The notes under the pieces: model-generated
Seen by the model: only the letters and a program-made list of their open reading frames with translations
Database searches by the model: none
Told to the model about the DNA's origin: nothing
Part shown: piece after piece, positions 35,093-64,000 of the stretch
Layout: every line of letters starts with the position of its first letter
Numbering within the stretch: the first letter of the stretch is position 1
Origin: a plasmid
DNA length: 64,000 bases
Reading direction: 5' to 3' (one strand)
Sequence record: NZ_CP145111.1
Position numbers and translations under genes: made by a program

Positions 35093-35695
35093 ATGTACCA
35101 AACTGAAGCAGATTTATCAAACGATTCGCTACGCGATTGGATAACGGCCATGCTGCCTGGAAAGCTTAATCAAGAAGATGATTCCAACAACCAACGGCTT
35201 CTCAATATTATCAGCGATATTTTTTTGGCACATAAGAATGACTTGCTCAACATTTCGGACCAATTGCGACTGTCAAAAGCTTCTGGTCAAGTTTTAACTG
35301 AAATTGCGGCAGATTACGGTGTCACACGGCTTGATGACGATGATGATTTTTTGCGCTTTCAGGTACGGTTACAGTTGCTTAAAAATCATAGTGGTGTGAC
35401 AACCAATGACATCAAAAAGCTCATTGCAACGGTCTTAAGCATTGATCCTAGCGTGTTTGATATTGATGGCACAGATAATCCAGAAGAGATCGAAGTGACC
35501 AATATTCCGTTTGACTTCAACTCTGGCGATAAGGCTGAGATCAAACGGAAGATTTTAACAAACGCGATTCAGTCAATGCTACCGCCAGAATATTTGTTGA
35601 AAGACTTACAGTACGCCGTAACGGCCAATAAGCCATTATATGTGGCTGTACATGCCCAAGCATATTCACAGATAACCGTAAAGGAGACGATATAA
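35093..35695 (+). CDS. XkdU-like tail protein
   Basis: 200 aa after the baseplate J gene. Confidence 0.5.
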   Translation: MYQTEADLSNDSLRDWITAMLPGKLNQEDDSNNQRLLNIISDIFLAHKNDLLNISDQLRLSKASGQVLTEIAADYGVTRLDDDDDFLRFQVRLQLLKNHSGVTTNDIKKLIATVLSIDPSVFDIDGTDNPEEIEVTNIPFDFNSGDKAEIKRKILTNAIQSMLPPEYLLKDLQYAVTANKPLYVAVHAQAYSQITVKETI

Positions 35696-37374
35696 TGGCA
35701 ACACCAAACGTTGGTATCTTAACCACCGCCGGTAAAGCTTTAATTGATAAGGTGAATTCCGGTCAAGCAAAAATAAGTTTCAGCAAAATTGTCTTTTCAT
35801 CGATGGATAATTCCCAATTATCCGATATGCAAGTCAAGGCTTTAACCGCAATTGCCCCACAAGAGGTGGTGGTTAGTTCACCAGAAACGACACTGGACAC
35901 CAATTCTGGAGAGACTCGTATTCGAGCTACCGGGACTAATGAAAAATTAGCCGACGGCGTATACGTTAAAACCTACGGGGTCTTCGCCAAAGACGATACC
36001 GGCAGCGAAATTTTATATGGTGTGACCGTATCACCCAACCCCAACTACTTCCCTGCTTATGATGGTGTCACCCCACAAGCAGTGACTTACAGCTACAAAA
36101 CTGTCATTCAAGAGACTAGCAATATTACCATGACGAACTCGAATGATGTGTATGCCAGTCAGGAAGACTTAACAGAAGCATTACAGCCTTATATCAAGAC
36201 AGTTGACGTTAATCAGCAACTGGATAAAAAAGTGAATATTGCTGATATGCGTAAACCAGCCAGCGATGTAGCGGGAATTGAAGAAGTTAACGCCAAACAA
36301 GATAAAATTGGCTACACACCTGCCGACGATTCCAAAGTTTTGCATTCAACTGTAACTCCATTAAATTCAACGGATATGAATACTGTTTTAACTGCTGGAT
36401 TTTATCAGTTATTTAATGGAACTAATGGAATACCGAATGGAGATAATTGGACTCTTTATCAGGTAATTCCTTTAGGTAGTTCAAATAGTACAAATGGGAT
36501 TCAACTTGCATACGAAACAAATAACACTGTTTTAGGAATACGTTCTTGGGATACTTGGGGTAGTGGTACTCATTTTTCTAATTGGGTTCAGTTTGCTGAC
36601 GATTCCAAAGTTGTTCACAGTTCAGATATGCGTAAACCAGCCAGTGATGTGGCAGGAATTGAAGAAGTTAATGCTAAACAGGATAAAATTGGTTACACGC
36701 CTGCTGATGATTCCAAAGTTGCCCACCTATCTGGCACAAACAATTTTGATACCGTCCCAACGGTCAAAAATAATCCGTTATTACTAGCAAGCAGTTTACC
36801 GTCTGACCTAGCACGAACGACTAAGGATGCCAATTTTACAGGAAAACTTCAAAAGTCTGGAATTGACGTGGCTACCAAGTCTGATGTTACAACGGCTGTC
36901 AGCACTGCTACTGCTAATATGGTTGATTCCAGCAAGCCTACAAACTTCACGGCCGGATTACAGTCAGGAGGTGTCGATGTCGCAACCGCGGCTGACTTAA
37001 AAAGCATTGAAGACAGTGCTTGGCGTCAGCTAGATAATAAGTATATTACAGTTCGTTCTGGGAAACTTTCGTCAAATACAAATATTATCTATAAAATTGA
37101 CCAAATAACAAAGCGAATATACTTATCAGGTTTTGTTATCGCATCGGAGGGGGCAGCAGTAACGGTTAATCTTAGTCATATTATTAAAGCCTCAACGAGT
37201 ACAGGCAACGGTATAACCTATTATAACGGTGATAGCAACAGTTTTGGCGTATCAGGACTTGACACTGGTAATACCTTTACAATAGATACAACCGATGATG
37301 ACTATTGTTTAATTGGATTTAGAATAGGTGGAAATTCTGACCCTGCATATTTTGAATATACTGAATTAGTATAA
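35695..37374 (+). CDS. tail fiber / receptor-binding protein
   Basis: 559 aa. Contains an internal ~100-bp direct repeat (36241-36340 and 36617-36716). Confidence 0.6.
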   Translation: MATPNVGILTTAGKALIDKVNSGQAKISFSKIVFSSMDNSQLSDMQVKALTAIAPQEVVVSSPETTLDTNSGETRIRATGTNEKLADGVYVKTYGVFAKDDTGSEILYGVTVSPNPNYFPAYDGVTPQAVTYSYKTVIQETSNITMTNSNDVYASQEDLTEALQPYIKTVDVNQQLDKKVNIADMRKPASDVAGIEEVNAKQDKIGYTPADDSKVLHSTVTPLNSTDMNTVLTAGFYQLFNGTNGIPNGDNWTLYQVIPLGSSNSTNGIQLAYETNNTVLGIRSWDTWGSGTHFSNWVQFADDSKVVHSSDMRKPASDVAGIEEVNAKQDKIGYTPADDSKVAHLSGTNNFDTVPTVKNNPLLLASSLPSDLARTTKDANFTGKLQKSGIDVATKSDVTTAVSTATANMVDSSKPTNFTAGLQSGGVDVATAADLKSIEDSAWRQLDNKYITVRSGKLSSNTNIIYKIDQITKRIYLSGFVIASEGAAVTVNLSHIIKASTSTGNGITYYNGDSNSFGVSGLDTGNTFTIDTTDDDYCLIGFRIGGNSDPAYFEYTELV

Positions 37375-39824: not shown

Positions 39825-39862
39825 AAAAATAAATAATTTATTTTTTATTATTTATTATTAAA
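39825..39862. repeat. AT-rich palindromic repeat flanking par cassette 1 (left copy)
   Basis: AAATAAATAATTTATTTTTTATTATTTATTATTAAA, containing the palindrome AAATAAATAATTTATTT. Confidence 0.45.
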
Positions 39863-40090
39863 TTCGTCTGAATTGATTGCGAACTTTAGCATAGAGTCTA
39901 TGACATCAACTATCTTGGATTCTTGTCGATAGGCAATGTCTTTTACTTGCTTGTAAGTGGTTTCTCGGACTTGCACTGGACGAGTACTTTCTTTTTTTTG
40001 CTTAAATGGGCTTTCGTTATCGCCTAGTTGTTGGTTAGCCTGCTTTGCTAACTTGCCTAAAAAGTCATTAGCCATTTTCCATTTCTCCAA
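39848..40090 (-). CDS. small ParB/ParG-like partition partner (80 aa)
   Basis: Overlaps the 3' end of the ParA gene. Basic N-terminus. Confidence 0.45.
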   Translation of the reverse strand: MEKWKMANDFLGKLAKQANQQLGDNESPFKQKKESTRPVQVRETTYKQVKDIAYRQESKIVDVIDSMLKFAINSDEFNNK

Positions 40091-40856
40091 TCCGCTTTAA
40101 TTGTTCTTTTAGTACCATATCGTACATTCCAATTGCTCGTTTATCCCAATGGTCTTCATTCTTAATTCCTTCATTTGAAAAAAGCTTAACTCGCTCTTGT
40201 TGCCAAATTCTGTTAGCAAATACAGCATCTCCAAATGAATCTACGGCGGCTTGCGTTATTTCTTTATCAACTTTGGCGTCCTTTTTAACGAGATAAAGAA
40301 TAACACCGGCAACGTTAAATGATGCTTGATAATCGCTCTTTAATTGAAACATGTACTGAGCAGTTTTAAGAACGGATGTGTAAGCTTGTTTTTGAGTTTG
40401 TAATACTAATGATATATAGTCACTGGCTAAGATGGCGTTGTTAGTAAAAATTGAAAGTGTTGGTGGAACATCGATGATAATGTAATCAAATTGTTCCTTA
40501 AATTTTTTAATCAGCTCGCTTAGTATAAGCATGCGATCATGAGATTTAATCTTTTCAGCTTTACCGGGCCATAAGCTTAGTTCCCAATCAGCTGGAATTA
40601 TTGAAATATTATCAGTCAGAGCAACTACTGATTTGCTTAGATCAAAATTTAGAAGCCCGTTATAAAGAGATACAGTTGGTTCGATTTCTTTGTTAAAAGT
40701 AGCTTTCATAATTTCAGTTGCGTTAGCCTGCGGATCAAGGTCAATTAGCAAAACCTTGTTTTTATTAGAGCCTAATAAATATGTGTTCATGACGCTCAAT
40801 GTGGTCTTACCTACGCCACCTTTAAAGTTGAAATGTAATAACGTTTTAGCGCTCAT
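40068..40856 (-). CDS. parA: ParA-family partition ATPase
   Basis: Deviant Walker A NFKGGVGKTT. 262 aa. Confidence 0.85.
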   Translation of the reverse strand: MSAKTLLHFNFKGGVGKTTLSVMNTYLLGSNKNKVLLIDLDPQANATEIMKATFNKEIEPTVSLYNGLLNFDLSKSVVALTDNISIIPADWELSLWPGKAEKIKSHDRMLILSELIKKFKEQFDYIIIDVPPTLSIFTNNAILASDYISLVLQTQKQAYTSVLKTAQYMFQLKSDYQASFNVAGVILYLVKKDAKVDKEITQAAVDSFGDAVFANRIWQQERVKLFSNEGIKNEDHWDKRAIGMYDMVLKEQLKRIGEMENG

Positions 40857-40924
40857 AGCATATCCTCCTAATAAGATTAGAATAACACAAGCACGGAGTA
40901 ATTTAAAATAAATAATAAGTAATT

Positions 40925-40960
40925 TAAAATAAATAATTTATTATTTATAATTTATTATAA
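40925..40960. repeat. AT-rich palindromic repeat flanking par cassette 1 (right copy)
   Basis: AAAATAAATAATTTATTATTTATAATTTATTATAAA, a direct repeat of 39825-39862. Confidence 0.45.
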
Positions 40961-41039
40961 AGTTGACAAGCCACAGCTTAAGGGTTACTCTTACAGCATA
41001 GAGGTTGCTAAGCAAAGAGACTATTAAAATACATACAAA

Positions 41040-41590
41040 AAAACACCCACCAACGGGAATTGGTGAGCGCCACAAAAGTCTATTGAATTTATAGAGTATT
41101 ATATCATGGCCGGTGCGATTTTTAAAGCCCTAGGGGACAAGCTGGGGTCTAAATCCAAGGGGACACGTTTGCCAGTGCGACTTCAATAAGTCTGGCTATA
41201 CCACAACAAGGTCATCTGTACGGCTGGGTGGTGAATGGTGAGCGCGACCATTAACGGCGCGGGTGGTAAAACGAAGCTTCGGCTTGGTGCCACTGATTAG
41301 TTGGTGATCGAACAAAAATAAATACGTATCATCAACGCCTTCTAGGGCGTTTTTTAGTAGGCTAAACCGAAAACGTAGGTTTATAATGAGTGGTGGTAGC
41401 AATACCGCAATTGTACAGACAAGCGACGGGCGTTAACGACCGACGAACTAAGGGGAAACTTTTAGTAGTAGAATTGTACTCTGGTTCAGTTATTCCAAAT
41501 AGCTGATTCCAGGGAACAATTCTGCGCTCAAAACGTCACTCCCTCTAAACTGAATGGAAAACCGTAACCCGTCAAGTCAAAAACAAAAGA
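41040..41590 (+). ncRNA. conserved noncoding, probably structured element (copy A)
   Basis: Near-identical copy at 58280-58817. No credible ORF. Internal intrinsic terminator AACGCCttctaGGGCGTTTTTT (~41335-41358). Multiple hairpins. Confidence 0.35.
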
Positions 41591-42002
41591 TAATTAAATG
41601 GGGAGTGTTTATTTTTGGGGACATGGCTGTGGTATTTTGGTATAACTATTGTTTTTGTAGCATATTTTGTAATACTTGCTCGTAATAAACGGCTAACTAA
41701 GGTTAATCTAGTTTTATTTTTTATAAGCTATTTGATTATGATTTTTGCGCAAGTTATTGCTAGTCATTTTTGAGATACTTGGTTAATGATAAGTGGGAAT
41801 GGTCTAGGGAGAAACTAAGAAAATTTCACAAAGACGGTTTACCCAATTAAAGCCAAGCTGCAACCTATACCACTTCTTTTTTGGACAAGTTCACAATCAA
41901 AAAATAACGGATCGTTGTTTTATCAGGGCATGAAGGGGTTACTTGGGATAAGCCCCATTATGTAAAGTAAGAATCGGTATAGCTAATAGATGAGGTGATC
42001 AC

Positions 42003-42206
42003 ATGATTAATCGGGTTAATATTGCAGTTTTAATTCCATTCTTAATTTTAATTGGGGTTATTTGTCTAATTGTGGGATTCTGGCATGATTTTAAGGACTT
42101 AACCGTTATTCAAAAGACCGGTATTATCTTGTGTGTCATTGGCTACGTCGTTCCTGTTGTGTTAAGTCAGGTAATGAGAATTAAGAGCGTAAAATATCTT
42201 GTGTAA
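42003..42206 (+). CDS. small two-TM membrane protein (67 aa), C-terminus ends inside the IS256 terminal repeat
   Basis: MINRVNIAVLIPFLILIGVICLIVGFW... The homologous copy at ~59300-59515 has lost the ATG. Confidence 0.35.
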   Translation: MINRVNIAVLIPFLILIGVICLIVGFWHDFKDLTVIQKTGIILCVIGYVVPVVLSQVMRIKSVKYLV

Positions 42207-43513
42207 ATGCATAAAAGATTTCTGAATTGTATAGAAATAGGGAATGCCTTCCCTTATGATATTTAGTAACCACAGAAAACATCACAGGAGGCATTCCCCA
42301 TCAATGAACTTACCACAGAAATTATCGCTGCACTAGCCCAAAAGCAAGATTTGGACGAAATTTTTCGTCACCACCTCGAAATTGCGATTAACCAGCTGCT
42401 TCAAACCGAATTGGCAGAGTTTTTGGGTTACGAACGCTACTCATACGCTGGGATTAACACTGGTAATAACCGCAACGGCAGTTATGAGCGCTCGTTTGAT
42501 ACGAAGTACGGCCAACTTAACTTAACCATTCCTCGAGATCGCAATGGCCGGTTTGAAAATCATACCTTGCCAGCCTACGGTCGGCACAGTGATAATTTAG
42601 AAACAACGGTCATTCAGTTGTATACCAAGGGAATTACCACTGCTGAAATTGCCGAACTCATTGAGAAAATGTACGGTGCTCACTACTCCAAAGCCACGGT
42701 TTCCAATATGACTAAAGCCGTCAATGAACAGGTTCAAGCTTTCCAGCAACGTCGACTGGCTTCACAATATGCGGCCATCTTCTTAGATGCCACTTACTTG
42801 CCGTTAAAGCGGGATACCGTTCAAAAAGAAGCCGTTCATATTGCGATTGGCATTCGTCCAGATGGTACGAAAGAAGTGCTGAACTACCAAGTGGCGCCAA
42901 CGGAATCGACTGGAATCTGGACTGAACTGCTGGGAACCTTGATCAAGCAGGGCGTTAAAGATGTGCTGTTGTTTGTGGCCGATGGGTTAGTTGGTTTGGA
43001 TGAAGGCTTGAATCGGCATTTCCCTAAAGCCAAACGACAACGTTGCCTGGTTCATGTTGGGCGGAATCTGATGAACAAAGTTCGCGTAAAAGACCGCAAG
43101 GCCGTGATCAGTGACTTTAAACAAGTTCATCGGGCCGCCAACCGTGAAGCAGCCAAACTGAAACTGAATGAGTTCGCCAACAACTGGCATCAGACCTATC
43201 CCAAATTAATCAAAGATCTGCTTAAAATGCCGAATTTACTCACTTTCATGGACTTTCCACCAGCTATCCGGCAATCACTATACTCCACTAACCTGATTGA
43301 GAACTTTAATAAGCATCTCAAGCGCACCACCCACCACAAAGAACAATTTCCAACGGAAGATTCACTGGATCGCTTCCTGGTTTCTCAGTTTAATGTTTAT
43401 AACGAGAAGTCTCTGAAGCGGATCCACCGAGGGTTCAAAGGACTCCAGGACACCTTGGAAGCATCATTTATTTAAGTTAGATACATATTATATGTACGAA
43501 GGCATTTCATTTA
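42197..43513 (+). mobile_element. IS256-family insertion sequence, copy A
   Basis: Terminal inverted repeats ATCTTGTGTAAATG at 42197-42212 and 43499-43513. Mutator-type transposase inside. Confidence 0.7.
42304..43475 (+). CDS. IS256-family transposase (start codon ATG mutated to ATC relative to copy B)
   Basis: Identical to 59609-60784 except for a few SNPs. Only a TTG at 42351 is available as a start. Confidence 0.75.
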
Positions 43514-43586
43514 CACAAGATTCTTGACGCTACCCTATTTTTTTTGTTACAGTCAAAATAAAGCCAGCGAAAGCGAGGAGGACGTC

Positions 43587-44036
43587 ATGAAACAATACAC
43601 GAAATTTTTACTGATGATTCTTGTCTCTACAGTTATTATGTATGGGTTAATGTACCTTAATGTGTTCCAATTAGATCATATTTTTCTAAGCCAAACGCGA
43701 CTGTATATGGCGCTAATTATGGGCGCCACCATGGCCATTGTAATGCTGTTATTCATGTGGTCAATGTACCAGAATAAACGTTTGAACCGCCTGATCCTAC
43801 TTGGTAGTGCGGTGATATTTGCTGGCTCGCTTTATCTAGTTCGTAGCCAAGCGACCGTGCACGATGCAGCTTGGATGCAAGAAATGATCCCCCATCACTC
43901 GACCGCGATTCTAACCAGTGAACGCGCGCAACTCAGCGATCCGGAAGTCAAAGCCCTCGCACAGAAGATCGCTAAAACGCAACGTGAAGAGATCACGGAG
44001 ATGAAACGATTATTGAAAAAAGTTGCCGATCAATAG
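43587..44036 (+). CDS. DUF305-family membrane-anchored protein (possible metal homeostasis)
   Basis: N-terminal TM helices plus HDAAWMQEMIPHHSTAI motif. Promoter-like TTGACG-N17-TACAGT upstream. Confidence 0.55.
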   Translation: MKQYTKFLLMILVSTVIMYGLMYLNVFQLDHIFLSQTRLYMALIMGATMAIVMLLFMWSMYQNKRLNRLILLGSAVIFAGSLYLVRSQATVHDAAWMQEMIPHHSTAILTSERAQLSDPEVKALAQKIAKTQREEITEMKRLLKKVADQ

Positions 44037-44093
44037 CTGATAAAAAATAAGGAAGTTGACCAATCGGGCCAACTTCCTTATTTTTTAGGCTTA

Positions 44094-44660
44094 TTAATCA
44101 ACCGCAACGATCTGACCAGTCGCGATCGGTAACGTAACGTGTGCATCATAGTGGCCGACCATTCCGGCAACACTTTCTGGCAAGTGCACGTTAGCAGTCA
44201 CGCCGTGAATATAGATCACGCGTTTTTCAAGGTGTAATTCCGACTCACCAAATGCTTTTTTAAAGTTAGCTTGTAGCTCACTTAATGGGACTTTCTTCTC
44301 ATAAGTAAAATCACCGTGCTCATCCGCAGTTGGATAGCGGTCATGGGGAATATCCATATGTTCTGGGGCATCGTCAAAAGGTACCATCGTCGTCCCCGAA
44401 ACGGCTTCAGTCTCCATGAGATCAACAAAACCATCTGCATTCGCATCCTGTGCAGCCGTTGCGATCAACGCCTGCTTACCATCCGGAAAGCCATGAAAAT
44501 GTTCCCAATGCTGCATATTGGCCGGCGTGTTGTGCATTGTGATCTTAATCGTTAATTCATCATCTGCAATTGCGAACGTCGCTTCGCCATAAGCAGCCGT
44601 TCCAATCTTATCCGCATTCAATGGTACAATTTGTGCTGCATAGTGTGTGGTCATCAGCAA
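44094..44660 (-). CDS. His-rich hypothetical protein (188 aa), possible metal-binding
   Basis: Many His: HWEHFHGF, HMDIPHDRYPTADEHGDF, IHGVTANVHLP. Convergent with the DUF305 gene. Confidence 0.45.
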   Translation of the reverse strand: MLMTTHYAAQIVPLNADKIGTAAYGEATFAIADDELTIKITMHNTPANMQHWEHFHGFPDGKQALIATAAQDANADGFVDLMETEAVSGTTMVPFDDAPEHMDIPHDRYPTADEHGDFTYEKKVPLSELQANFKKAFGESELHLEKRVIYIHGVTANVHLPESVAGMVGHYDAHVTLPIATGQIVAVD

Positions 44661-44881
44661 AACCTCCTTGTATTACCTGAACAACGATCAATAGCTACGC
44701 CGCTAGTATAACACAGTTCAGCGCTTGCAAGTACCTGATTAGGCCAAGCAAGCAGTTATAGCATATTTTTAATTATGCTATGTGTAAAGTACCTACGGCG
44801 TAAAAATAGCGCAATTCAGCACGTCCTTAAAAGAACGAGTTTCCTTGCGCTTACATAAAAGCGGACAACTTTTATTCGATA

Positions 44882-45917
44882 TGGCAAATTACAAGTTTAA
44901 TCCGAACAAGCCCGGAATCTTTCAATGGCAGTCTGTTGATGATGTATTTTTAATGGTCGTTGATTAATTAGTTCAAGTGCTGCTAGGATCTCATCAGTCG
45001 TTACTTGGCTAAAATTGGTCTTTTTCGGGAAGAACCAGCGTAACCGTCTATTAAAATATTCATTGGAACCTCGCTCCCATGGTGAATATGGATGGCAAAA
45101 ATAAACTTTGATCTGATAATCCTGTTCTAAGGCCTGATAATTGGCAAACTCTTTACCATGATCAACAGTAATGGATTTTACTTGGGGACCGAAGGCCCCC
45201 ATAAACTTGCCAAAGGCGGTGTTTAGAGCCTTAGCCGTTCTATTAGGGGCTTTGATGGCCCATAGAAGTCGGGTCTTACGTTCTACGAATGTAACCAGAC
45301 ATGATCGTGACTCACTTCGACTAGAAAGCACCGTATCTACTTCCCAATGACCAAAAGCTAACCGTTGATTAACAGTTGTTGGCCGTTGTTCGATGGAAGT
45401 CCCACTTGTAAATTTCCCACGATTTTCGCTCACTCGGTGCTGGCGGACATTCCGATTGGGTAGATCAGTCAATTTGAAGGGGAGCCAGCCACGATTAAGC
45501 CAATTATAAATTGACGCAGTGCTCAAGTTATAAGCGGCCGCAATGGTTTCTGGTGACCAGGTTAATCGTAAGTGATTGGTAATTAAAGTCGCTAATGCTG
45601 CCGTCAGCATCGAACGACGACCGCAATTCCGCCTTTTGCGATCTGCATCTTGCTGAGCTAATTCTGGATCATAAGGTTTAACCCGGTCCAACTCATAGCT
45701 AATCGTAGCTTTGGCGACGCCTAAGGCGTCAGCCATTACTTGGTAAGATTTATTCCCCTCATTGACCAGTTGTGCTAGTGCGCCACGTTGAAAACGTGAT
45801 AAAGTAGATGTACCCAAAGTAATCACTCCCTATATTGGTTGGAATTAGCTACTACCATTGTAAGTGATTGCTTTGGGCTTTTTAATTTCTGTTCGGATTA
45901 ATTATAGAATTTGCCAA
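44882..45917 (-). mobile_element. IS30-family insertion sequence, copy A (~1036 bp)
   Basis: Inverted repeats TGGCAAATT...TAATCCGAACA at both ends. Confidence 0.75.
44897..45826 (-). CDS. IS30-family transposase
   Basis: 309 aa. N-terminal HTH. DDE region HWEVDTV...DHGKEF. Confidence 0.85.
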   Translation of the reverse strand: MITLGTSTLSRFQRGALAQLVNEGNKSYQVMADALGVAKATISYELDRVKPYDPELAQQDADRKRRNCGRRSMLTAALATLITNHLRLTWSPETIAAAYNLSTASIYNWLNRGWLPFKLTDLPNRNVRQHRVSENRGKFTSGTSIEQRPTTVNQRLAFGHWEVDTVLSSRSESRSCLVTFVERKTRLLWAIKAPNRTAKALNTAFGKFMGAFGPQVKSITVDHGKEFANYQALEQDYQIKVYFCHPYSPWERGSNEYFNRRLRWFFPKKTNFSQVTTDEILAALELINQRPLKIHHQQTAIERFRACSD

Positions 45918-46118
45918 ATAATATTATTTTATGCTGTGTTATCCGCAATTCTAAATCTGGATCATAGTGATATTTGATAGCTTTGTAGCAGTATGTAAAT
46001 AAAATTATTATTCTGATAAAAGCAAGCAACGATTGACAATTCTGATCGTTATTTTTTGAATCATGGCGTTTTTATATTACAATGATCCTAGAAAAAGTAA
46101 AGTTATGGAGGCGATTAG

Positions 46119-47324
46119 ATGAGTGATTTGGATCAGACAAACAGCTATCGATACGTCATTGTTGGTGGCGGAGTGGTTGCTGGCTATGCCATCAAGGGAA
46201 TTCGACAGGAAGATTCAGAGGGTGAGATCTTAATTATTTCGCAAGAGGCGGATGTCCCATATGAACGACCGGCACTGAGTAAAAAACTATGGCTAGATGA
46301 TGAATTTACTGAAGAGAACATTCAGATTGGTGCTGAAAATTATCCCAATGTGACTTTTAAGTTCAAGACAACGGTTACGGCTATTAATCGGCAAGATAAG
46401 GTCATTACATTGGCCGATAGTGAGCAAATCAAGTATGAACAGCTATTGCTAGCAACTGGCGGAGAACCTAGACAAATCCAGGGACCTTCTGATCCACATG
46501 TGCTAGTCTTTAGACAGTGGTCAGATTATCGCAAGTTACGTAAATTTAGTGGTCCGAACAAGCGAGTTGTGATCATTGGTGGTGGATATGTTGGTACAGA
46601 GCTCGCATCGTCACTGACCCAAAATGAGACTGAAGTTACGATGATTTTTCCAGAAAAAGCGCTGGGTGAGGGTAAATTTCCTGAGTCTATTCGGACTGAG
46701 TATGAAGCCACGTTCAAACGCAATGGTGTCACACTGATGAGTGGTCAGTTTGTCCAATCATATCAACGCCAAGGTGACCACTTGACTCTATTGACAAAGG
46801 ATGGTACGGTGATCGCAGCCGATACGATCATTGTTGGGTTAGGCGTTACGCCGCGGATTAGTTTAGCTGAAGACAGTTGTTTGGATTTAGCTGATGGTGG
46901 TGTGAAAGTTAATGAGTATCTCAATACTAGTGACCCAGCCATCTGGTCTGCTGGAGATATTGCCTCTTATCCAGATCACATCTTGGGTCGGCAACGGATT
47001 GAGCACGTGGACCATGCCCGACTTTCTGGTGAATTAGTTGGCCGTAATATGGCAGGTGCTCACATGAGCTATCAGCATACCCCATACTTCTATTCCATGA
47101 TTTTTGATATTTCCTGGCAAGCAATCGGTAATATTGATCCTAAATTGCAATTGATTTTTGATCGGCGAACGCATGGATCGCTTGTCTATTTCATAGATAC
47201 CGATAAGTTAGTTGGTGTTTTAGTTTGGAATGTTAAGGTGAATCTTGATGATGTTCGCGCATTGCTTGCGAACGCTCCAGCTACAGATGATCTGGTGGGC
47301 TCCATTCGAGAGAAGAAGGCTTAG
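46119..47324 (+). CDS. FAD-dependent pyridine nucleotide-disulfide oxidoreductase
   Basis: Two Rossmann GXGXXG motifs: VIVGGGVVAGYA and VVIIGGGYVGTE. Confidence 0.75.
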   Translation: MSDLDQTNSYRYVIVGGGVVAGYAIKGIRQEDSEGEILIISQEADVPYERPALSKKLWLDDEFTEENIQIGAENYPNVTFKFKTTVTAINRQDKVITLADSEQIKYEQLLLATGGEPRQIQGPSDPHVLVFRQWSDYRKLRKFSGPNKRVVIIGGGYVGTELASSLTQNETEVTMIFPEKALGEGKFPESIRTEYEATFKRNGVTLMSGQFVQSYQRQGDHLTLLTKDGTVIAADTIIVGLGVTPRISLAEDSCLDLADGGVKVNEYLNTSDPAIWSAGDIASYPDHILGRQRIEHVDHARLSGELVGRNMAGAHMSYQHTPYFYSMIFDISWQAIGNIDPKLQLIFDRRTHGSLVYFIDTDKLVGVLVWNVKVNLDDVRALLANAPATDDLVGSIREKKA

Positions 47325-55918: not shown

Positions 55919-56541
55919 CTATACCAACCGATTTTTAATATTAATCACTGTCTGAACCGAGACGCCAGTTTCGGCCGCAATCGCACGATAGCTGATTTTA
56001 GCCCCGGTTGCTTTGGTTCTTAACTGATCAACGATTCGATGATAAATAAACCGTTTTTGTGGGTTAGGTGCGTCTGCAGCGTATGCCGGTCTAGTTCCTC
56101 GATATTTCCCATTAGCCTTAGCAATCTCAATTCCTTGACGCTGACGCTCACGAATTTTCTTCCGCTCCGTCTGGGCCATATAAGCTAGCAGCTTGGTTAG
56201 CATATCGAACATAAATTTGTCCATATCTGAATCGCCAGTTTGCATTGAAAGAAATGGGGCGTCTAAGACTTCCATTCTAACTTGTTTATCTCTAATCTGT
56301 TTGATTATATCACTGGCATCGTCATAGTTTCGACTAAGCCGATCCAATGAGGCCACCACTAATGTATCTCCTTGCCGCACATAAGCAATCGTCGCCTGTA
56401 ATTCTGGTCGGTTCTGGGTCGACTTGCCCGATTGTTTTTCTTCAAATATTTTCTCACATCTGGCCACTTTCAAGGCTTTAATTTGGCGGGCCAAATTTTG
56501 ATCAGTTGAGCTAACCCGTGCATAACCAACTTTCATCAATA
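55919..56541 (-). CDS. serine recombinase (resolvase/invertase)
   Basis: MKVGYARVSSTDQN catalytic N-terminus. C-terminal HTH. RBS GAAAGGAGAG. Confidence 0.85.
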
Positions 56542-56740
56542 ACTCTCCTTTCAGAAGATCAGTCTCCCCCCACTCTACTACATTTTGTTTAGACACTCTA
56601 ATTAGACAGTTTGACAAAAACAAAGAACTGCTTGTTATCCTAAGTAGAATCTAAGCTTTTCTTCATAAGTTGATTATACTGCTTTTCGTCCATTTAGGGT
56701 ATACATCTAAAAGCTGAACGTGTTGTCTGAGAGCGCGTAA

Positions 56741-57070
56741 TTATTTACTTTTTACGCGTACATCACGTTTTTCTAAAGAATCAATTTGAAATTCTAATTC
56801 TTTACGTTCGTCTGAAGTCAAAGATTCAATATAAACAGATAAAGCTACTTCAATAGCTGCCTTTTGATTGTCACTATACCCTAATACAGCCATTGCTTGC
56901 AATTTGTTTCTAATGTGGTTGTTGATTTTTAGGTTTGTGTCAAAAGTAACCGAAGCAACTTGATTTTGTGGGGTTTTAATTCCTTTATTTGAATTTGAAA
57001 AATCCGAAATTTCAGCCTGCTTATCTGGCTTAATTGGGTTGCGGTTAGACCGAATCAATTTATTAGCCAT
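56741..57070 (-). CDS. small ParB/ParG-like partition partner (109 aa)
   Basis: Overlaps the ParA stop. Basic N-terminal tail. Confidence 0.45.
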   Translation of the reverse strand: MANKLIRSNRNPIKPDKQAEISDFSNSNKGIKTPQNQVASVTFDTNLKINNHIRNKLQAMAVLGYSDNQKAAIEVALSVYIESLTSDERKELEFQIDSLEKRDVRVKSK

Positions 57071-57872
57071 TTTCGATTGCCTCCATTCTTTTTAACATCT
57101 CGTCAGTTACGTCTTTGTATACTTTGAACACACGTCTATCAAACTGAGTGTTGAAAGTAATACCGGTTATTCCGTAACGTTTGATCCTCTGCATCGAGTG
57201 GATTTTGTGTTTAAAAATGTTTTCAGTTCCAAACTGATTAATAGCATTTTGAATAGTTGCTTCGTCTACAGGAGCTCCGGCTTGCAATAGAACAGCCAAT
57301 ATACCAACGATTTCTAAACGAGGAGCCTTGTAGGTATCAATAACTTGTTCCTGGATGTACTCTATAAATGCTTGAGCTCCCTCAAAACTATGTTCATGAG
57401 TTTGCATAACAATTACACAATAATCGCTGGCATACAATGCTGAATCGGTGATTAACGAGATAGTAGGTGGCGTATCTATGATGACATAATCATATTTATC
57501 TTTAATTGGTTTGATAAGATTACTGAATTCTTTGACGCGTTCATTATAGTCTTTGATTTTTTCCATATAGCGTGGGAAAAGAGCAAAGTCAGGTGCAGAA
57601 GCTAGGATATCGAAGTTTTCTTTTATATGTATTAAAGACTGAGTTAAATCACCATCTTCAATACTAGCCATGAGAGATTTTTTAAAATGGCCAACTTTTC
57701 CATCAATATTAACTTTAGTATTCAAGAGTAGATTTGTGGCGTTTCCTTGGGGATCCAAATCAACTAGTAGTGTTTTGTAACCACGATTGCTAAGGTCTAG
57801 AGCTACTAATGTTGAATTACTAGTTTTTCCAACTCCGCCTTTAAAATTTCCAAATGTTATGGTTTGTGTCAT
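57063..57872 (-). CDS. parA: ParA-family partition ATPase
   Basis: Deviant Walker A NFKGGVGKTS. The C-terminus ...RMEAIENG resembles that of the 40068-40856 ParA (...RIGEMENG). Confidence 0.85.
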   Translation of the reverse strand: MTQTITFGNFKGGVGKTSNSTLVALDLSNRGYKTLLVDLDPQGNATNLLLNTKVNIDGKVGHFKKSLMASIEDGDLTQSLIHIKENFDILASAPDFALFPRYMEKIKDYNERVKEFSNLIKPIKDKYDYVIIDTPPTISLITDSALYASDYCVIVMQTHEHSFEGAQAFIEYIQEQVIDTYKAPRLEIVGILAVLLQAGAPVDEATIQNAINQFGTENIFKHKIHSMQRIKRYGITGITFNTQFDRRVFKVYKDVTDEMLKRMEAIENG

Positions 57873-57942
57873 GATAACGCCTCCTAACGATTGTTGTTAT
57901 ATTAGCACTATATCGTTTTTGAATCAACACGATATAGTGCTA

Positions 57943-58203
57943 TAGTGCGTTAGTTCTTTAGTTCTATAATGCTGTTGTTCTGTAGTGCTTATGTTCTACA
58001 GTGCTATAGTGCTGTAGTTCTATAGTGCTGTAGTGCTAGCACTACCGTATAGTTTCAAGCCTCATGTGTAAGCATTTTCTAAACAAGAAAATAGTGCTGT
58101 AGTTCTTTAGTTCCGTAGTTCTATAGTTCTATAGTTCTGTAGTGCTTATATTCTGTAGTGCTGTAGTTCTTTTGTTCTATAGTGCTGTAGTGCTGTAGTG
58201 CTA
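57943..58203. repeat. two arrays of ~13 tandem 8-bp iterons (TKCTRTAG), putative partition centromere
   Basis: Arrays at 57943-58040 and 58092-58203, made of TTCTATAG/TGCTGTAG units separated by ~50 bp. Immediately upstream of parA. Confidence 0.6.
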
Positions 58204-58279
58204 GTTTTTAAAACCATTGACTTTTGTTGTGGTTGAGCTATAATTCTAAATGAAATCGATAAATAGAACATAAAAAAAC

Positions 58280-58817
58280 ACCCACCAACAGCCATTGGTG
58301 AGCGCCACAAAAAAGTCATCATTGTTTAATGACTATTATATCATGGCCGGTGCGATTTTTAAAGCCCTAGGGGACAAGCTGGGGTCTAAATCCAAGGGGA
58401 CACGTTTGCCAGTGCGACTTCAATAAGTCTGGCTATACCACAACAAGGCTATCTGTACGGCTGGGTGGTGAATGGTGAGCGCGACCATTAACGGCGCGGG
58501 TGGTAAAACGAAGCTTCGGCTTGGTGCCATTGATTAGTTGGTGATCGAACAAAAATAAATACGTATCATCAACGCCTGCTAGGGCGTTTTTAAGTAGGTT
58601 AAACCGAAAACGTAGGTTTATAATGAGTGGTGGTAGCAATACCGCAATTGTACAGACAAGTGACGGGCGTTAACGACCGACGAACTAAGGGGAAACTTTT
58701 AGTAGTAGAATTGTACTCTGGTTCAGTTATTTCAAATAGCTGTTTCCAGGGAACAATTCTGCGCTCAAAACGTCACTCCCTCTAAACTGAATGGAAAACC
58801 GTAACCCGTCAAGTCAA
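58280..58817 (+). ncRNA. conserved noncoding, probably structured element (copy B)
   Basis: ~98% identical to 41040-41580. Its SNPs fall as nonsynonymous changes in the only ORF, arguing against a coding function. Confidence 0.35.
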
Positions 58818-58853
58818 AACCAACATTAGAATCAAGAAAGTTGATGATTTAAA

Positions 58854-59132
58854 ATGCTTGATTTAAGAGATTGTGAGATTGCTTTTACCGGACGTCTAAC
58901 TACCATGAATCGGGATCAAGCTTTTAGTTTGGCGAAAGTCTTTGGGGCGAAACCACAAAATTGGGTTACGAAACAGACAGATTATTTAGTGGTTGGGTTA
59001 ATTGAGACGGCTTTAGGTGAGGAGCCCATCACAAAAAAGTTATTGACGGGAACACCAACGATTTCAGAACGGGATTTTTTGGACTGGTGTCAGGCACGAT
59101 TGGCGCAATGGTCTAGGAGTTTAGGCGGTTAA
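58854..59132 (+). CDS. stand-alone BRCT-domain protein (resembles LigA C-terminal BRCT)
   Basis: FTGRLTTMNRDQAFSLAKVFGAKPQNWVTKQTDYLVVG pattern. Present only in copy B of the duplication. Confidence 0.45.
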   Translation: MLDLRDCEIAFTGRLTTMNRDQAFSLAKVFGAKPQNWVTKQTDYLVVGLIETALGEEPITKKLLTGTPTISERDFLDWCQARLAQWSRSLGG

Positions 59133-59505
59133 ATTCACAAAGTGAGTTTACTGATTTTTGGGGGATTTTTCATCTAGACCACTCCTCTCCCGTCAAATTT
59201 CACAAAGGAAAAATAACGGATCGTTGTTTTATCAGGGAGTGAGGGGGTTACTTGGGATAAGCCCCATTATGTGAAGTAGAAATTGGTATAGCTAGTTGAT
59301 GAGGTGATCATACGATTAATTGGGTTAATATTGCAGTTTTAATTCCATTCTTAATTTTAATTGGTGTTATTTGTCTAATTGTGGGATTCTGGCATGATTT
59401 TAAGGACTTAACCGTTATTCAAAAGACCGGTATTATCTTGTGTGTCATTGGCTACGTCGTTCCTGTTGTGTTAAATCAGGTAATGAGAATTAAGAGCGTA
59501 AAATA

Positions 59506-60822
59506 TCTTGTGTAAATGCATAAAAGATTTCTGAATTGTATAGAAATAGGGAATGCCTTCCCTTATGATATTTAGTAACCACAGAAAACATCACAGGAGG
59601 CATTCCCCATGAATGAACTTACCACAGAAATTATCGCTGCACTAGCCCAAAAGCAAGATTTGGACGAAGTTTTTCGTCACCACCTCGAAATTGCGATTAA
59701 CCAGCTGCTTCAAACCGAATTGGCAGAGTTTTTGGGTTACGAACGCTACTCATACGCTGGGATTAACACTGGTAATAACCGCAACGGCAGTTATGAGCGC
59801 TCGTTTGATACGAAGTACGGCCAACTTAACTTAACCATTCCTCGAGATCGCAATGGCCGGTTTGAAAATCATACCTTGCCAGCCTACGGTCGGCACAGTG
59901 ATAATTTAGAAACAACGGTCATTCAGTTGTATACCAAGGGAATTACCACTGCTGAAATTGCCGAACTCATTGAGAAAATGTACGGTGCTCACTACTCCAA
60001 AGCCACGGTTTCCAACATGACTAAAGCCGTCAATGAACAGGTTCAAGCTTTCCAGCAACGTCGACTGGCTTCACAATATGCGGCCATCTTCTTAGATGCC
60101 ACTTACTTGCCGTTAAAGCGGGATACCGTTCAAAAAGAAGCCGTTCATATTGCGATTGGCATTCGTCCAGATGGTACGAAAGAAGTGCTGAACTACCAAG
60201 TGGCGCCAACGGAATCGACTGGAATCTGGACTGAACTGCTGGGAACCTTGATCAAGCAGGGCGTTAAAGATGTGCTGTTGTTTGTGGCCGATGGGTTAGT
60301 TGGTTTGGATGAAGGCTTGAATCGGCATTTCCCTAAAGCCAAACGACAACGTTGCCTGGTTCATGTTGGGCGGAATCTGATGAACAAAGTTCGCGTAAAA
60401 GACCGCAAGGCCGTGATCAGTGACTTTAAACAAGTTCATCGGGCCGCCAACCGTGAAGCAGCCAAACTGAAACTGAATGAGTTCGCCAACAACTGGCATC
60501 AGACCTATCCCAAATTAATCAAAGATCTGCTTAAAATGCCGAATTTACTCACTTTCATGGACTTTCCACCAGCTATCCGGCAATCACTATACTCCACTAA
60601 CCTGATTGAGAACTTTAATAAGCATCTCAAGCGCACCACCCACCACAAAGAACAATTTCCAACGGAAGATTCACTGGATCGCTTCCTGGTTTCTCAGTTT
60701 AATGTTTATAACGAGAAGTCTCTGAAGCGGATCCACCGAGGGTTCAAAGGACTCCAGGACACCTTGGAAGCATCATTTATTTAAGTTAGATACATATTAT
60801 ATGTACGAAGGCATTTCATTTA
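59506..60822 (+). mobile_element. IS256-family insertion sequence, copy B
   Basis: Same inverted repeats as copy A. Intact ATG. Confidence 0.7.
59609..60784 (+). CDS. IS256-family transposase (intact)
   Basis: 391 aa. Full N-terminus MNELTTEIIAALAQKQDLDE. Confidence 0.85.
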   Translation: MNELTTEIIAALAQKQDLDEVFRHHLEIAINQLLQTELAEFLGYERYSYAGINTGNNRNGSYERSFDTKYGQLNLTIPRDRNGRFENHTLPAYGRHSDNLETTVIQLYTKGITTAEIAELIEKMYGAHYSKATVSNMTKAVNEQVQAFQQRRLASQYAAIFLDATYLPLKRDTVQKEAVHIAIGIRPDGTKEVLNYQVAPTESTGIWTELLGTLIKQGVKDVLLFVADGLVGLDEGLNRHFPKAKRQRCLVHVGRNLMNKVRVKDRKAVISDFKQVHRAANREAAKLKLNEFANNWHQTYPKLIKDLLKMPNLLTFMDFPPAIRQSLYSTNLIENFNKHLKRTTHHKEQFPTEDSLDRFLVSQFNVYNEKSLKRIHRGFKGLQDTLEASFI

Positions 60823-60895
60823 CACAAGATTCTTGACGCTACCCTATTTTTTTTGTTACAGTCAAAATAAAGCCAGCGAAAGCGAGGAGGACGTC

Positions 60896-61345
60896 ATGAA
60901 ACAATACACGAAATTTTTACTGATGATTCTTGTCTCTACAGTTATTATGTATGGGTTAATGTACCTTAATGTGTTCCAATTAGATCATATTTTTCTAAGC
61001 CAAACGCGACTGTATATGGCGCTAATTATGGGCGCCACCATGGCCATTGTAATGCTGTTATTCATGTGGTCAATGTACCAGAATAAACGTTTGAACCGCC
61101 TGATCCTACTTGGTAGTGCGGTGATATTTGCTGGCTCGCTTTATCTAGTTCGTAGCCAAGCGACCGTGCACGATGCAGCTTGGATGCAAGAAATGATCCC
61201 CCATCACTCGACCGCGATTCTAACCAGTGAACGCGCGCAACTCAGCGATCCGGAAGTCAAAGCCCTCGCACAGAAGATCGCTAAAACGCAACGTGAAGAG
61301 ATCACGGAGATGAAACGATTATTGAAAAAAGTTGCCGATCAATAG
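60896..61345 (+). CDS. DUF305-family protein (copy B)
   Basis: Identical to 43587-44036. Confidence 0.55.
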   Translation: MKQYTKFLLMILVSTVIMYGLMYLNVFQLDHIFLSQTRLYMALIMGATMAIVMLLFMWSMYQNKRLNRLILLGSAVIFAGSLYLVRSQATVHDAAWMQEMIPHHSTAILTSERAQLSDPEVKALAQKIAKTQREEITEMKRLLKKVADQ

Positions 61346-61402
61346 CTGATAAAAAATAAGGAAGTTGACCAATCGGGCCAACTTCCTTATTTTTTAGGCT
61401 TA

Positions 61403-61969
61403 TTAATCAACCGCAACGATCTGACCAGTCGCGATCGGTAACGTAACGTGTGCATCATAGTGGCCGACCATTCCGGCAACACTTTCTGGCAAGTGCACGT
61501 TAGCAGTCACGCCGTGAATATAGATCACGCGTTTTTCAAGGTGTAATTCCGACTCACCAAATGCTTTTTTAAAGTTAGCTTGTAGCTCACTTAATGGGAC
61601 TTTCTTCTCATAAGTAAAATCACCGTGCTCATCCGCAGTTGGATAGCGGTCATGGGGAATATCCATATGTTCTGGGGCATCGTCAAAAGGTACCATCGTC
61701 GTCCCCGAAACGGCTTCAGTCTCCATGAGATCAACAAAACCATCTGCATTCGCATCCTGTGCAGCCGTTGCGATCAACGCCTGCTTACCATCCGGAAAGC
61801 CATGAAAATGTTCCCAATGCTGCATATTGGCCGGCGTGTTGTGCATTGTGATCTTAATCGTTAATTCATCATCTGCAATTGCGAACGTCGCTTCGCCATA
61901 AGCAGCCGTTCCAATCTTATCCGCATTCAATGGTACAATTTGTGCTGCATAGTGTGTGGTCATCAGCAA
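61403..61969 (-). CDS. His-rich hypothetical protein (copy B)
   Basis: Identical to 44094-44660. Confidence 0.45.
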   Translation of the reverse strand: MLMTTHYAAQIVPLNADKIGTAAYGEATFAIADDELTIKITMHNTPANMQHWEHFHGFPDGKQALIATAAQDANADGFVDLMETEAVSGTTMVPFDDAPEHMDIPHDRYPTADEHGDFTYEKKVPLSELQANFKKAFGESELHLEKRVIYIHGVTANVHLPESVAGMVGHYDAHVTLPIATGQIVAVD

Positions 61970-62190
61970 AACCTCCTTGTATTACCTGAACAACGATCAA
62001 TAGCTACGCCGCTAGTATAACACAGTTCAGCGCTTGCAAGTACCTGATTAGGCCAAGCAAGCAGTTATAGCATATTTTTAATTATGCTATGTGTAAAGTA
62101 CCTACGGCGTAAAAATAGCGCAATTCAGCACGTCCTTAAAAGAACGAGTTTCCTTGCGCTTACATAAAAGCGGACAACTTTTATTCGATA

Positions 62191-63226: not shown

Positions 63227-63427
63227 ATAATATTATTTTATGCTGTGTTATCCGCAATTCTAAATCTGGATCATAGTGATATTTGATAGCTTTGTAGCAG
63301 TATGTAAATAAAATTATTATTCTGATAAAAGCAAGCAACGATTGACAATTCTGATCGTTATTTTTTGAATCATGGCGTTTTTATATTACAATGATCCTAG
63401 AAAAAGTAAAGTTATGGAGGCGATTAG

Positions 63428-64000
63428 ATGAGTGATTTGGATCAGACAAACAGCTATCGATACGTCATTGTTGGTGGCGGAGTGGTTGCTGGCTATGCCA
63501 TCAAGGGAATTCGACAGGAAGATTCAGAGGGTGAGATCTTAATTATTTCGCAAGAGGCGGATGTCCCATATGAACGACCGGCACTGAGTAAAAAACTATG
63601 GCTAGATGATGAATTTACTGAAGAGAACATTCAGATTGGTGCTGAAAATTATCCCAATGTGACTTTTAAGTTCAAGACAACGGTTACGGCTATTAATCGG
63701 CAAGATAAGGTCATTACATTGGCCGATAGTGAGCAAATCAAGTATGAACAGCTATTGCTAGCAACTGGCGGAGAACCTAGACAAATCCAGGGACCTTCTG
63801 ATCCACATGTGCTAGTCTTTAGACAGTGGTCAGATTATCGCAAGTTACGTAAATTTAGTGGTCCGAACAAGCGAGTTGTGATCATTGGTGGTGGATATGT
63901 TGGTACAGAGCTCGCATCGTCACTGACCCAAAATGAGACTGAAGTTACGATGATTTTTCCAGAAAAAGCGCTGGGTGAGGGTAAATTTCCTGAGTCTATT
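63428..64000 (+). CDS. FAD-dependent oxidoreductase, copy B (3' end outside window)
   Basis: Identical to the 5' part of 46119-47324. Confidence 0.7.
   Translation, partial: MSDLDQTNSYRYVIVGGGVVAGYAIKGIRQEDSEGEILIISQEADVPYERPALSKKLWLDDEFTEENIQIGAENYPNVTFKFKTTVTAINRQDKVITLADSEQIKYEQLLLATGGEPRQIQGPSDPHVLVFRQWSDYRKLRKFSGPNKRVVIIGGGYVGTELASSLTQNETEVTMIFPEKALGEGKFPESI

Follow-up and report, generated by a model that had tools for sequence, protein, structure and literature searches.

A duplicated, partition-linked RNA element of Lactobacillaceae plasmids as a candidate replicon without a Rep protein

A block of some 550 bp occurs twice, each time next to a parA gene, in a 64,000-nucleotide stretch of the plasmid sequence NZ_CP145111.1 (referred to here as the window; positions count from its first letter). 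The question it raises is what such an element does, and whether it does so as protein-coding sequence, as DNA or as RNA. Its plus strand is, with little room for doubt, a structured RNA. On the function of this RNA we are more guarded: the reading that we prefer, to which we assign a probability of about 0.55, is that the element is an RNA-based, Rep-independent replicon and copy-control unit, in which an antisense RNA would govern copy number and incompatibility. It is comparative sequence evidence that points to this replication function.

The repeat and its plus-strand RNA

Within the window, blastn aligns 41037-41586 (copy 1) with 58272-58823 (copy 2) at 96.0% identity, with 16 mismatches and 5 gap openings. 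An initial annotation of this DNA had reported that 41040-41590 recurs near 58280-58817; this is borne out, although its count of about ten substitutions was too low. The copies start 181 and 400 nt away from the parA start codons and face the other way. A covariance model (CM) of the core, termed CM R1 and comprising 169 positions and 36 pairs, scores 195 bits on copy 1 and 194 bits on copy 2, against 8.5 bits for the next-best match in the window, and the repeat is therefore far from chance. Homology has sharp edges at both ends of the element: conservation stops at ...GTCAAGTCAA in alignments A1 and A2, and the homology of the L. brevis phage-plasmid pl12112-1 to copy 1 ends at 41588.

A second duplication, in which 41887-46691 corresponds to 59196-64000 (4.8 kb, 99.6% identical by blastn), begins about 300 nt beyond the element and runs up to the end of the window. 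This block is much younger than the 96% repeat, and the two do not share a history; the 550-bp element thus stands as a unit by itself. The 4.8-kb block contains a 67-aa membrane open reading frame (ORF), an IS256-family transposase, a DUF305 protein and an IS30-type transposase.

The element is found in 365 plasmid records by megablast and in 431 by blastn, all of them from Lactobacillaceae (Lactiplantibacillus 304, Levilactobacillus 70, Pediococcus 20, Loigolactobacillus 19, and others), and is almost never annotated in them. Identity is mostly 90-99%. A second, diverged clade has about 78% identity and covers 41130-41443 only, while a third, more distant form is present in Paucilactobacillus oligofermentans, with further variants. 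The element also occurs in 25 metagenome contigs, in 17 IMG/VR contigs, most of 42-46 kb, and in a temperate phage isolate, Lactobacillus phage Lb (43.4 kb), which has a CI-like repressor and a ParA-like gene.

A check of homologues for covariation had been proposed along with the initial annotation, and was carried out on 19 distinct sequences from about four clades (alignment A2). RNAalifold gave 107 pairs in 17 helices, with compensatory, double-sided change at 38 of these pairs. Standard pairs occupy 97.3% of cells; sliding the 3' partners by 1-3 columns brings this down to 32-42% and leaves 3-8 pairs with double-sided change, and none of 500 column shuffles matched the observed values. 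Examples of compensatory change are GCCAG/CUGGC to ACCGG/CCGGU (41171-41196), GCGC/GCGC to GGGC/GCCC to UGAC/GUCA (41242-41260), AAGC-UUCG-GCUU to AUGC-UUCG-GCAU to GUGCU-UACG-AGCAC (41271-41288) and GAAUUG/CAAUUC to GAGUUG/CAACUC (41471-41522). Two hairpins are capped by UNCG and GNRA tetraloops, and long-range closing helices are present. The single-sequence fold of copy 1 (41098-41590) has an energy of -161 kcal/mol (z=-5.1). G-U pairs make up 14% of paired cells on the plus strand, and reading the minus strand instead lowers pairing to 83.5%, which identifies the plus strand as the RNA. Strand-specific compensatory pairing, together with the lack of a conserved ORF, marks the element as a structured non-coding RNA.

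The alignments predict a conserved RNA of about 450-550 nt with about 17 conserved helices, reaching from upstream of 41112 to approximately 41530-41586. The upstream limit is set by helix H2, which pairs 41112-41116 with 41524-41528, so that the long RNA must start upstream of 41112. A possible pseudoknot, AAUGGU/ACCAUU (41234-41239 with 41247-41252), lies at invariant positions from which no covariation signal can be obtained.

Searches against Rfam 15, at the gathering score for the whole window and at E<=10 for 40860-41900, gave no relevant match to the element; the only hits at E<=10 were an SpF11-like match of 19.6 bits on the antisense terminator described below and a chance snoRNA. By eye, the initial annotation had found no fit to T-box, group II intron, tmRNA, RNase P or common riboswitches. 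Of the identities that it put forward, a structured non-coding RNA and a replication origin with a control RNA are favoured by the evidence. A riboswitch or leader, by contrast, finds neither a match in Rfam nor a conserved downstream gene: the content downstream varies between a BRCT-domain ORF, an unrelated ORF termed orf110, a surface-protein gene and insertion sequence (IS) elements.

It might still be supposed that the element acts as DNA, in the form of an iteron or DnaA-box origin, a multimer-resolution site or an oriT, and that its RNA fold is incidental. Its position by the par genes and near a resolvase gene (55919-56623) is typical of such sites, and the motif GGTGAGCGC, pointed out earlier as a repeat, is indeed present twice in copy 1 (41062-41070 and 41237-41245). 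However, this pair is missing in the other clade and no direct repeat is conserved; nor does the resolvase show linkage to copy 1, and pl12112-1 is typed as non-mobilizable. Moreover, G-U-dependent, strand-specific pairing and the 38 compensatory pairs indicate selection on RNA, which also counts against the resolution site suggested in the initial annotation. A DNA site is thus highly improbable.

Least credible of all is that the element is a gene for a 68-aa minus-strand protein or a small toxin-antitoxin locus, to which we attach almost no weight. Both of the ORFs reported earlier are present (Table 1), and the frame is intact in all 12 main-clade sequences; of the seven other aligned sequences, however, five carry stops or a frameshift in it, and it is therefore regarded as spurious. 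The two copies differ at six nucleotides in five codons, four of the changes being nonsynonymous and one synonymous, so that the earlier figure of five to six differences stands but not the statement that all are nonsynonymous; the RNA pairs are kept. The earlier view that no protein is under purifying selection here is supported. The ORF has no Pfam or NCBIfam match, and a Pfam scan of six-frame translations returned zero domains. An ORF starting ATGGAAAACCG at 41554 was rejected as well, as it has just 12 aa in copy 2 and is missing from the other clade.

A predicted antisense RNA and an internal terminator

On the minus strand, both copies have the same TTTAAA-17-TG-TATAAT, followed after about 30 nt by a 13-bp terminator hairpin and a U-run. 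This promoter and terminator cassette probably yields an antisense RNA of about 55 nt, whose transcript ends are estimates; as predicted for copy 1, it folds at -17 kcal/mol (z=-3.0) with a loosely structured 5' tail. The plus-strand hairpin CACCAAcgggaaTTGGTG (CACCAA...TTGGTG) noted in the initial annotation is real, but represents the top of this minus-strand terminator. The promoter stretch is invariant within the main clade. In the diverged clade the same cassette design is found in other sequence, namely TTGCAA-17-TACAAT (recognized by eye) and then CCCGCGA...UCGCGGG with a U-run, and the terminator hairpin (helix 1) is kept there through compensatory changes.

Sequence variation is concentrated in the antisense gene. 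Within the main clade, which is 95% identical, sequences differ pairwise by a mean of 23% for the terminator loop and 32.5% for the tail/SL1 stretch, compared with 3-4% for the stem arms, 0% for the promoter and 1-4% for everything else. The hairpin exists in 11 variants and the tail in 21 among 41 main-type sequences, and changes at the top of the stem keep the pairing. The window copies follow the same pattern, which had been missed earlier: 15 of their 24 differing columns fall inside 41053-41097, the approximately 45 nt of the antisense gene, with just nine substitutions across the other 490 nt or so, and their loops read GGGA in copy 1 and AGCC in copy 2. A role in incompatibility would explain why some 45 nt are hypervariable while the rest is near-invariant, and why a single molecule holds two loop variants. 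The elements L032 (L. coryniformis pLDW-4) and L009/L017 are chimeric, with a 5' part (antisense gene and first helices) of main-clade type and the rest of diverged type, which implies recombination between element variants within the RNA gene.

Of 20 family members scanned, 17 have promoter-like sites on the plus strand ahead of the hairpin, in flanks that share no homology; the candidates for the two window copies are given in Table 1. If the long RNA starts at these predicted promoters, the short RNA would be fully complementary to its 5' leader.

Further downstream, the initial annotation had placed a canonical internal terminator at about 41335-41358. A hairpin at 41334-41351 and a T-run are found there, but the evidence does not support their marking a simple transcript end. 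The stem AACGCC/GGCGUU is kept in 97% of cells, with changes that are one-sided and wobble-compatible (A-U to G-U, C-G to U-G). Its 5' half can pair alternatively in H12 (41300-41310/41325-41336), in which there are two compensatory pairs, and its 3' half, together with the U-run, can pair in H13 (41337-41346/41353-41362), in which there are four. Two mutually exclusive folds thus appear to be selected around the terminator, which is the anatomy of an attenuator. In this light, the internal terminator looks like one state of an alternative-structure switch that resembles an attenuator.

Evidence for and against a role in replication

At every locus inspected, parA and a small partner gene adjoin the element in divergent orientation. 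The ParA/DUF5388 system probably has its centromere in the arrays with an 8-bp period between parA2 and copy 2; in the region upstream of parA1 (40880-40960), AT-rich repeats of about 21 bp stand in place of these arrays. In the NCIMB700965 plasmid (L008) a second, partial element lies beside another ParA gene at 14601-15181 on the minus strand, with homology up to the terminator and none after it.

Six complete circular carriers of 20.7-44.6 kb have no annotated Rep gene. These are pWCFS103 (36.1 kb), pl12112-1 (44.6 kb), L. plantarum P47 unnamed3 (20.7 kb), L. backii pL11991-6 (22.4 kb), L. plantarum PC518 unnamed5 (25.3 kb) and L. plantarum X7021 unnamed1 (30.8 kb). No Rep domain was found in unannotated ORFs of at least 100 aa and selected hypothetical proteins of the four smaller Rep-less plasmids, nor was there an initiator gene in the 19 kb inspected of a seventh carrier, L. 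backii L11988-9. The 480-aa gene that follows the element in pl12112-1 resembles a secreted, Thr/Ser-rich surface protein. When the six carriers were compared all against all by blastn, the sole segment common to all of them was the element core (pWCFS103 1398-1681, equivalent to window positions ~41130-41413).

In the main clade, a short ORF downstream of the element matches PF18008 (Bac_RepA_C), the C-terminal domain of RepA_N-type initiators, with E=2e-36. It corresponds to the last ~108 aa of a 365-aa 'replication initiator protein A', which tblastn finds at full length in many other Lactobacillaceae plasmids. In main-clade carriers of the element the homology starts at the same residue, with stop codons before it, and in L. 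backii L11988-9 the remnant is frameshifted. The remnant lies at 302-610 on the minus strand in pWCFS103 (L003) and at 15331-15792 in L037, and it was also located in L033, L034, L035 and L011. The simplest history consistent with these sequences would be a single event, in which the 5' two-thirds of repA gave way to the element and either the BRCT ORF or the unrelated 110-aa ORF, and after which the plasmids continued to replicate.

RepA_N replicons such as pSK41 have an antisense RNA directed against the rep leader. An alternative, which we consider doubtful, is that the element is the control region (antisense RNA and attenuator leader) of a protein-dependent replicon of this type. It would now regulate the downstream BRCT ORF, orf110 or repA remnant, or persist as a relic, and replication would depend on RepA in trans or on another replicon. 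The repA 3' remnant in the main clade is consistent with this, as are an intact repA 650 nt downstream of the element in KLDS1.0386 p5 and the fact that L. plantarum strains usually have several plasmids. In KLDS1.0386 p5, however, the element and repA have an opposite-strand gene and a terminator-like hairpin between them, and the element is therefore not the leader of repA. Downstream genes elsewhere differ or are absent, and the window copies, pl12112-1 and PC518 unnamed5 have no RepA_C remnant. The origin of RepA_N replicons is located inside the part of the gene that is missing here. Furthermore, a structured domain of 450 nt is far larger than known rep leaders, and strong purifying selection on about 17 helices across clades would be unexpected of a relic.

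If the element is instead a replicon, each copy would be a self-contained, non-coding replication and copy-control module, back-to-back with the parAB operon of its backbone. Transcription of the long RNA would start upstream and run across the antisense gene; this RNA would act in cis as a replication primer or R-loop-forming RNA, from which host enzymes (RNA polymerase, an RNase H and Pol I) could start theta replication without a plasmid-encoded initiator. When H12 and H13 fold, transcription would pass the U-run, and the 3' domain and tail (to ~41586) would form a structure or RNA-DNA hybrid for the start of DNA synthesis. Pairing of the antisense RNA with the leader, on the other hand, would shift the fold to the terminator (41334-41357), so that the transcript is aborted before the 3' domain. 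Aborted transcripts would lower the frequency of initiation, providing copy-number control by attenuation, and the antisense loop and tail would constitute the incompatibility determinant. Rep-less RNA replicons with a short antisense incompatibility RNA are represented by ColE1 and the MRB family (PMC3035462). In L. plantarum, a Rep-less p256 miniori of ~0.7 kb replicates with a cat gene as the 1690-bp pCD256dEc (PMC3526553, PMC4247782).

Several points weigh against a replicon. The start of the sense RNA, the antisense RNA and the origin activity are all predictions, and covariation comes mainly from three or four clades, with fewer independent events than cells. The predicted antisense target lies ~250 nt upstream of the terminator, farther than in known attenuation systems. 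The gene tables of PLSDB omit pseudogenes, for which our own ORF scans compensate only partly, and an initiator that escaped recognition, or a Rep protein provided in trans by co-resident plasmids, could serve the Rep-less plasmids. Some carriers have Rep genes (KLDS1.0386 p5 and the NCIMB700965 plasmid) and phage-plasmids carry a phage replication module, so that the element is not always the sole possible replicon. No small plasmid consisting of little beyond the element was found, the smallest carrier being 20.4 kb, and none of the 25 metagenome contigs has the terminal overlaps of a small circle. In six complete plasmids the extrema of GC skew do not coincide with the element, although mosaic gene orientation dominates this signal. 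Finally, p256, the one lactobacillal origin known from experiment to be Rep-less, shows no similarity to the element by sequence or covariance model.

It has to be considered, therefore, whether the element is a large 'ornate' structured RNA of mobile elements without a part in replication, which modulates partition or plasmid gene expression or has some other role, as with the ROOL and GOLLD RNAs that Lactobacillales phages and plasmids carry. The small minus-strand RNA would then be its regulator or an unrelated small RNA. The structure is certain and the function is not, the element is found in a virion-forming temperate phage and in IMG/VR contigs, and it co-occurs with ordinary Rep genes in some plasmids, all of which suits such an RNA. 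There is also a precedent in the abundant 520-nt megaplasmid RNA of L. salivarius, which is of unknown function and can be deleted (PMC5643018). Set against this, no ROOL, GOLLD or other Rfam match to the element was obtained even at E<=10. The strict linkage to parA, the existence of Rep-less carriers with nothing else in common, the replacement of repA and the incompatibility-like hypervariability of the antisense RNA would all be left unexplained. We judge this possibility to be unlikely, though not so much so that it can be neglected.

A replicon reading can be taken further, with odds that we put a little short of even. The element would then define a further, independent, RNA-driven and Rep-independent replicon family, possibly the first defined at the RNA level in Gram-positives, with an intricately folded RNA of ~0.5 kb, attenuator included, as initiator and a rapidly evolving antisense RNA as its control. 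It would have displaced a RepA_N initiator in an ancestor common to several hundred Lactobacillaceae plasmids, and phage Lb would have adopted it for life as a plasmid prophage.

A replicon of this kind would account for replication in a large proportion of the plasmids of Lactiplantibacillus, Levilactobacillus, Pediococcus and Loigolactobacillus, including pWCFS103 of the model strain WCFS1 and plasmids of beer-spoilage and food-fermentation strains. In the carriers checked, annotation pipelines give no initiator gene, and for some of them no replicon type is assigned. Such a replicon would be a Gram-positive addition to the very short list of RNA-initiated replicons (ColE1 and MRB), would offer about 12 natural antisense variants for mutually compatible food-grade vectors, and would provide a case of a phage using an RNA replicon for plasmid lysogeny. 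Whatever its function, the element represents an uncatalogued RNA family of ~0.5 kb with unusually clear covariation, fit for inclusion in Rfam and for use in plasmid typing.

Neighbouring features and comparison with known systems

The window looks like a cointegrate, on sequence grounds, of a phage-plasmid with another plasmid backbone. Positions 25-41588 are collinear with pl12112-1 (44,555 bp) at 87-98% identity; this homology breaks off precisely where the element ends on its 3' side and is followed by at least 22 kb of IS-rich plasmid DNA. The stretch 1-41588 is close to the temperate Lactobacillus phage Lb (genus Heilongjiangvirus), and this phage part has head, tail and lysis genes, a CI-like repressor and ParA. 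The annotation of pl12112-1 includes no integrase. The phage part also contains a 58-nt tRNA-like sequence at 14015-14072 on the plus strand (48 bits to the Rfam tRNA model), with acceptor, D and T arms and 4 nt for the anticodon arm, and a 96-bp direct repeat (36244-36339 and 36625-36720, 89.6% identity) within a 559-aa phage ORF at 35695-37374.

Downstream of the element a short motif, ATTTCACAAAG (also written TTTCACAAAG), has three matches in the window, all of them downstream of elements, against 0.38 expected. With the consensus (A/T)ATTTCACAAA(G/C), it is present in 15 of 22 loci on the strand of the element and within 1.5 kb downstream, compared with a background of one per ~24 kb. It occurs once or twice per locus, 61-65 nt apart, at 58-130 nt past the element in the diverged clade and 243-380 nt in the main clade; loci other than those of the window are L008, L010, L011, L031, L034, L036 and L038. 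The motif could mark where DNA synthesis starts, bind a protein or be a recombination junction. Directly after copy 2, and in several plasmids, there is a 92-aa ORF with a BRCT domain (58854-59132, plus strand), whose matches to the BRCT domains of LigA and of a Pol III epsilon-like protein are weak; in plasmids of the pWCFS103 type the unrelated orf110 takes its place.

Table 1. Coordinates of the element copies, their predicted parts and adjoining features in the window
Feature	Position	Strand	Remarks
Partition operon 1	39848..40856	-	ParA 40068-40856 (Pfam AAA_31/CbiA/ParA) and 80-aa partner; same layout in pl12112-1 and phage Lb
Candidate sense promoters, copy 1	40923..40992	+	TTTAAA-17-TATAAT 40923-40951; TTGACA-17-TACTCT 40964-40992 (by eye)
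Predicted antisense RNA, copy 1	41036..41091	-	~55 nt; variable 5' tail and 13-bp terminator hairpin (41071 to 41042) with variable 4-nt loop
Element, copy 1	41037..41586	+	Whole conserved block; blastn against copy 2; homology to 431 plasmids
Predicted antisense promoter, copy 1	41098..41126 (41126 to 41098)	-	TTTAAA-17-TG-TATAAT; promoter scan 10/12, extended -10
5' core domain, copy 1	41127..41292	+	Helices H3-H8 and H10; UUCG-capped hairpin 41271-41288; covariation; CM 194.7 bits; falls within the segment common to the six Rep-less carriers
68-aa ORF, spurious	41196..41402 (copy 2: 58433-58639)	-	Broken in relatives; no family match
Attenuator-like region, copy 1	41300..41362	+	Terminator hairpin 41334-41351, U-run to 41357, competing with H12 and H13
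3' domain, copy 1	41363..41528	+	H14, GCAA-capped H15 (41395-41406), H16/H17 (41471-41522), 3' strands of H11, H9 and H2
Long-range helices	H11 41289-41299/41384-41394; H9 41262-41267/41436-41441; H2 41112-41116/41524-41528	+	
Downstream motif ATTTCACAAAG	41823..41833 (copy 2: 59132-59142, 59197-59207)	+	Strand of the element
Partition operon 2	56741..57872	-	ParA 57063-57872 and DUF5388 partner 56741-57070 (Pfam); same layout in pWCFS103
Repeat arrays of 8-bp period (ctatagtg/ctgtagtt)	57894..58226 (57894-58061, 58067-58226)	.	~9 and ~8 tandem units
Candidate sense promoter, copy 2	58217..58244	+	TTGACT-16-TATAAT, 11/12
Predicted antisense RNA, copy 2	58271..58328	-	Terminator 58306 to 58277; promoter just outside, 58363 to 58335
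Element, copy 2	58272..58823	+	blastn; nhmmer E=1.9e-187
5' core domain, copy 2	58364..58529	+	CM R1 193.9 bits
Attenuator-like region, copy 2	58537..58599	+	Terminator stem 58571-58588; coordinates mapped from alignment A2

Among known systems, the RepA_N replicons of the pSK41 type resemble the element in that par and rep regions lie back-to-back and an antisense RNA is proposed to act on the leader by attenuation; the element, moreover, occupies the former position of the repA 5' region. No RepA_N or Bac_RepA_C domain was detected in ORFs of the window or in six-frame translations, and the C-terminal remnant occurs only in some relatives. With ROOL, GOLLD and the 520-nt long non-coding RNA of L. 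salivarius (PMC5643018) the element shares a size of ~0.5 kb, many helices and a location on plasmids or phages of lactic acid bacteria. Unlike ROOL and GOLLD, it has a fixed neighbour in parA, a predicted antisense partner and an internal attenuator-like region, and no covariance model of these or other catalogued large RNAs in Rfam 15 matched it, even at E<=10.

The replicons p256 and pCD033 come from the same host group and are theta-type and low copy, with a minimal origin of ~0.7 kb that functions with only a cat gene (PMC3526553, PMC4247782). RNA-initiated replication was reportedly suggested for pCD033 by Heiss et al. in 2015. However, p256 is a 7.2-kb plasmid and its gene table holds no ParA gene. 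Compared with the element, p256 (NC_006278) gave no blastn match at E<=1, a best nhmmer match of E=11 and a best CM R1 match of 4.7 bits (E=6.7). The published primer for the p256 miniori maps to p256 6229-6247, and a scan of genome contigs with it gave chance matches in unrelated metagenome-assembled genomes only.

The MRB replicons of the Vibrionaceae, of which pB1067 is an example (Le Roux et al. 2011, PMC3035462), have an origin region without ORFs that specifies two partly complementary RNAs, as the element is predicted to do. Their RNA I of ~68 nt is a negative regulator and incompatibility determinant, and related origins are mutually compatible (PMC3035462). MRB and the element are each confined to one bacterial family, although the families belong to different phyla. 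The likeness is functional: the long RNA of the element differs in having an architecture supported by covariation and a putative attenuator.

With ColE1, the element would share the absence of a plasmid initiator, a long folded sense RNA upstream of the DNA start (~550 nt in ColE1; ~570-630 nt separate the predicted sense promoters from the sharp 3' edge of the element) and a short antisense RNA against the 5' end of the sense RNA, whose loops set copy number and incompatibility. The ColE1 antisense RNA, however, has 108 nt and three stem-loops, whereas that of the element is predicted to have ~55 nt and to consist mainly of one terminator hairpin. ColE1 is small and high-copy; the element stands beside parAB on low-copy plasmids of 20-140 kb, in a Gram-positive host, and has an internal attenuator-like region. 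No homology to ColE1 RNA I or RNA II emerged from Rfam 15 at the gathering score or at E<=10, the ColE1 family content of Rfam not having been checked. By analogy, and with the same better-than-even confidence as the replicon reading itself, the element would thus work like the ColE1 and MRB replicons without being a member of either family.

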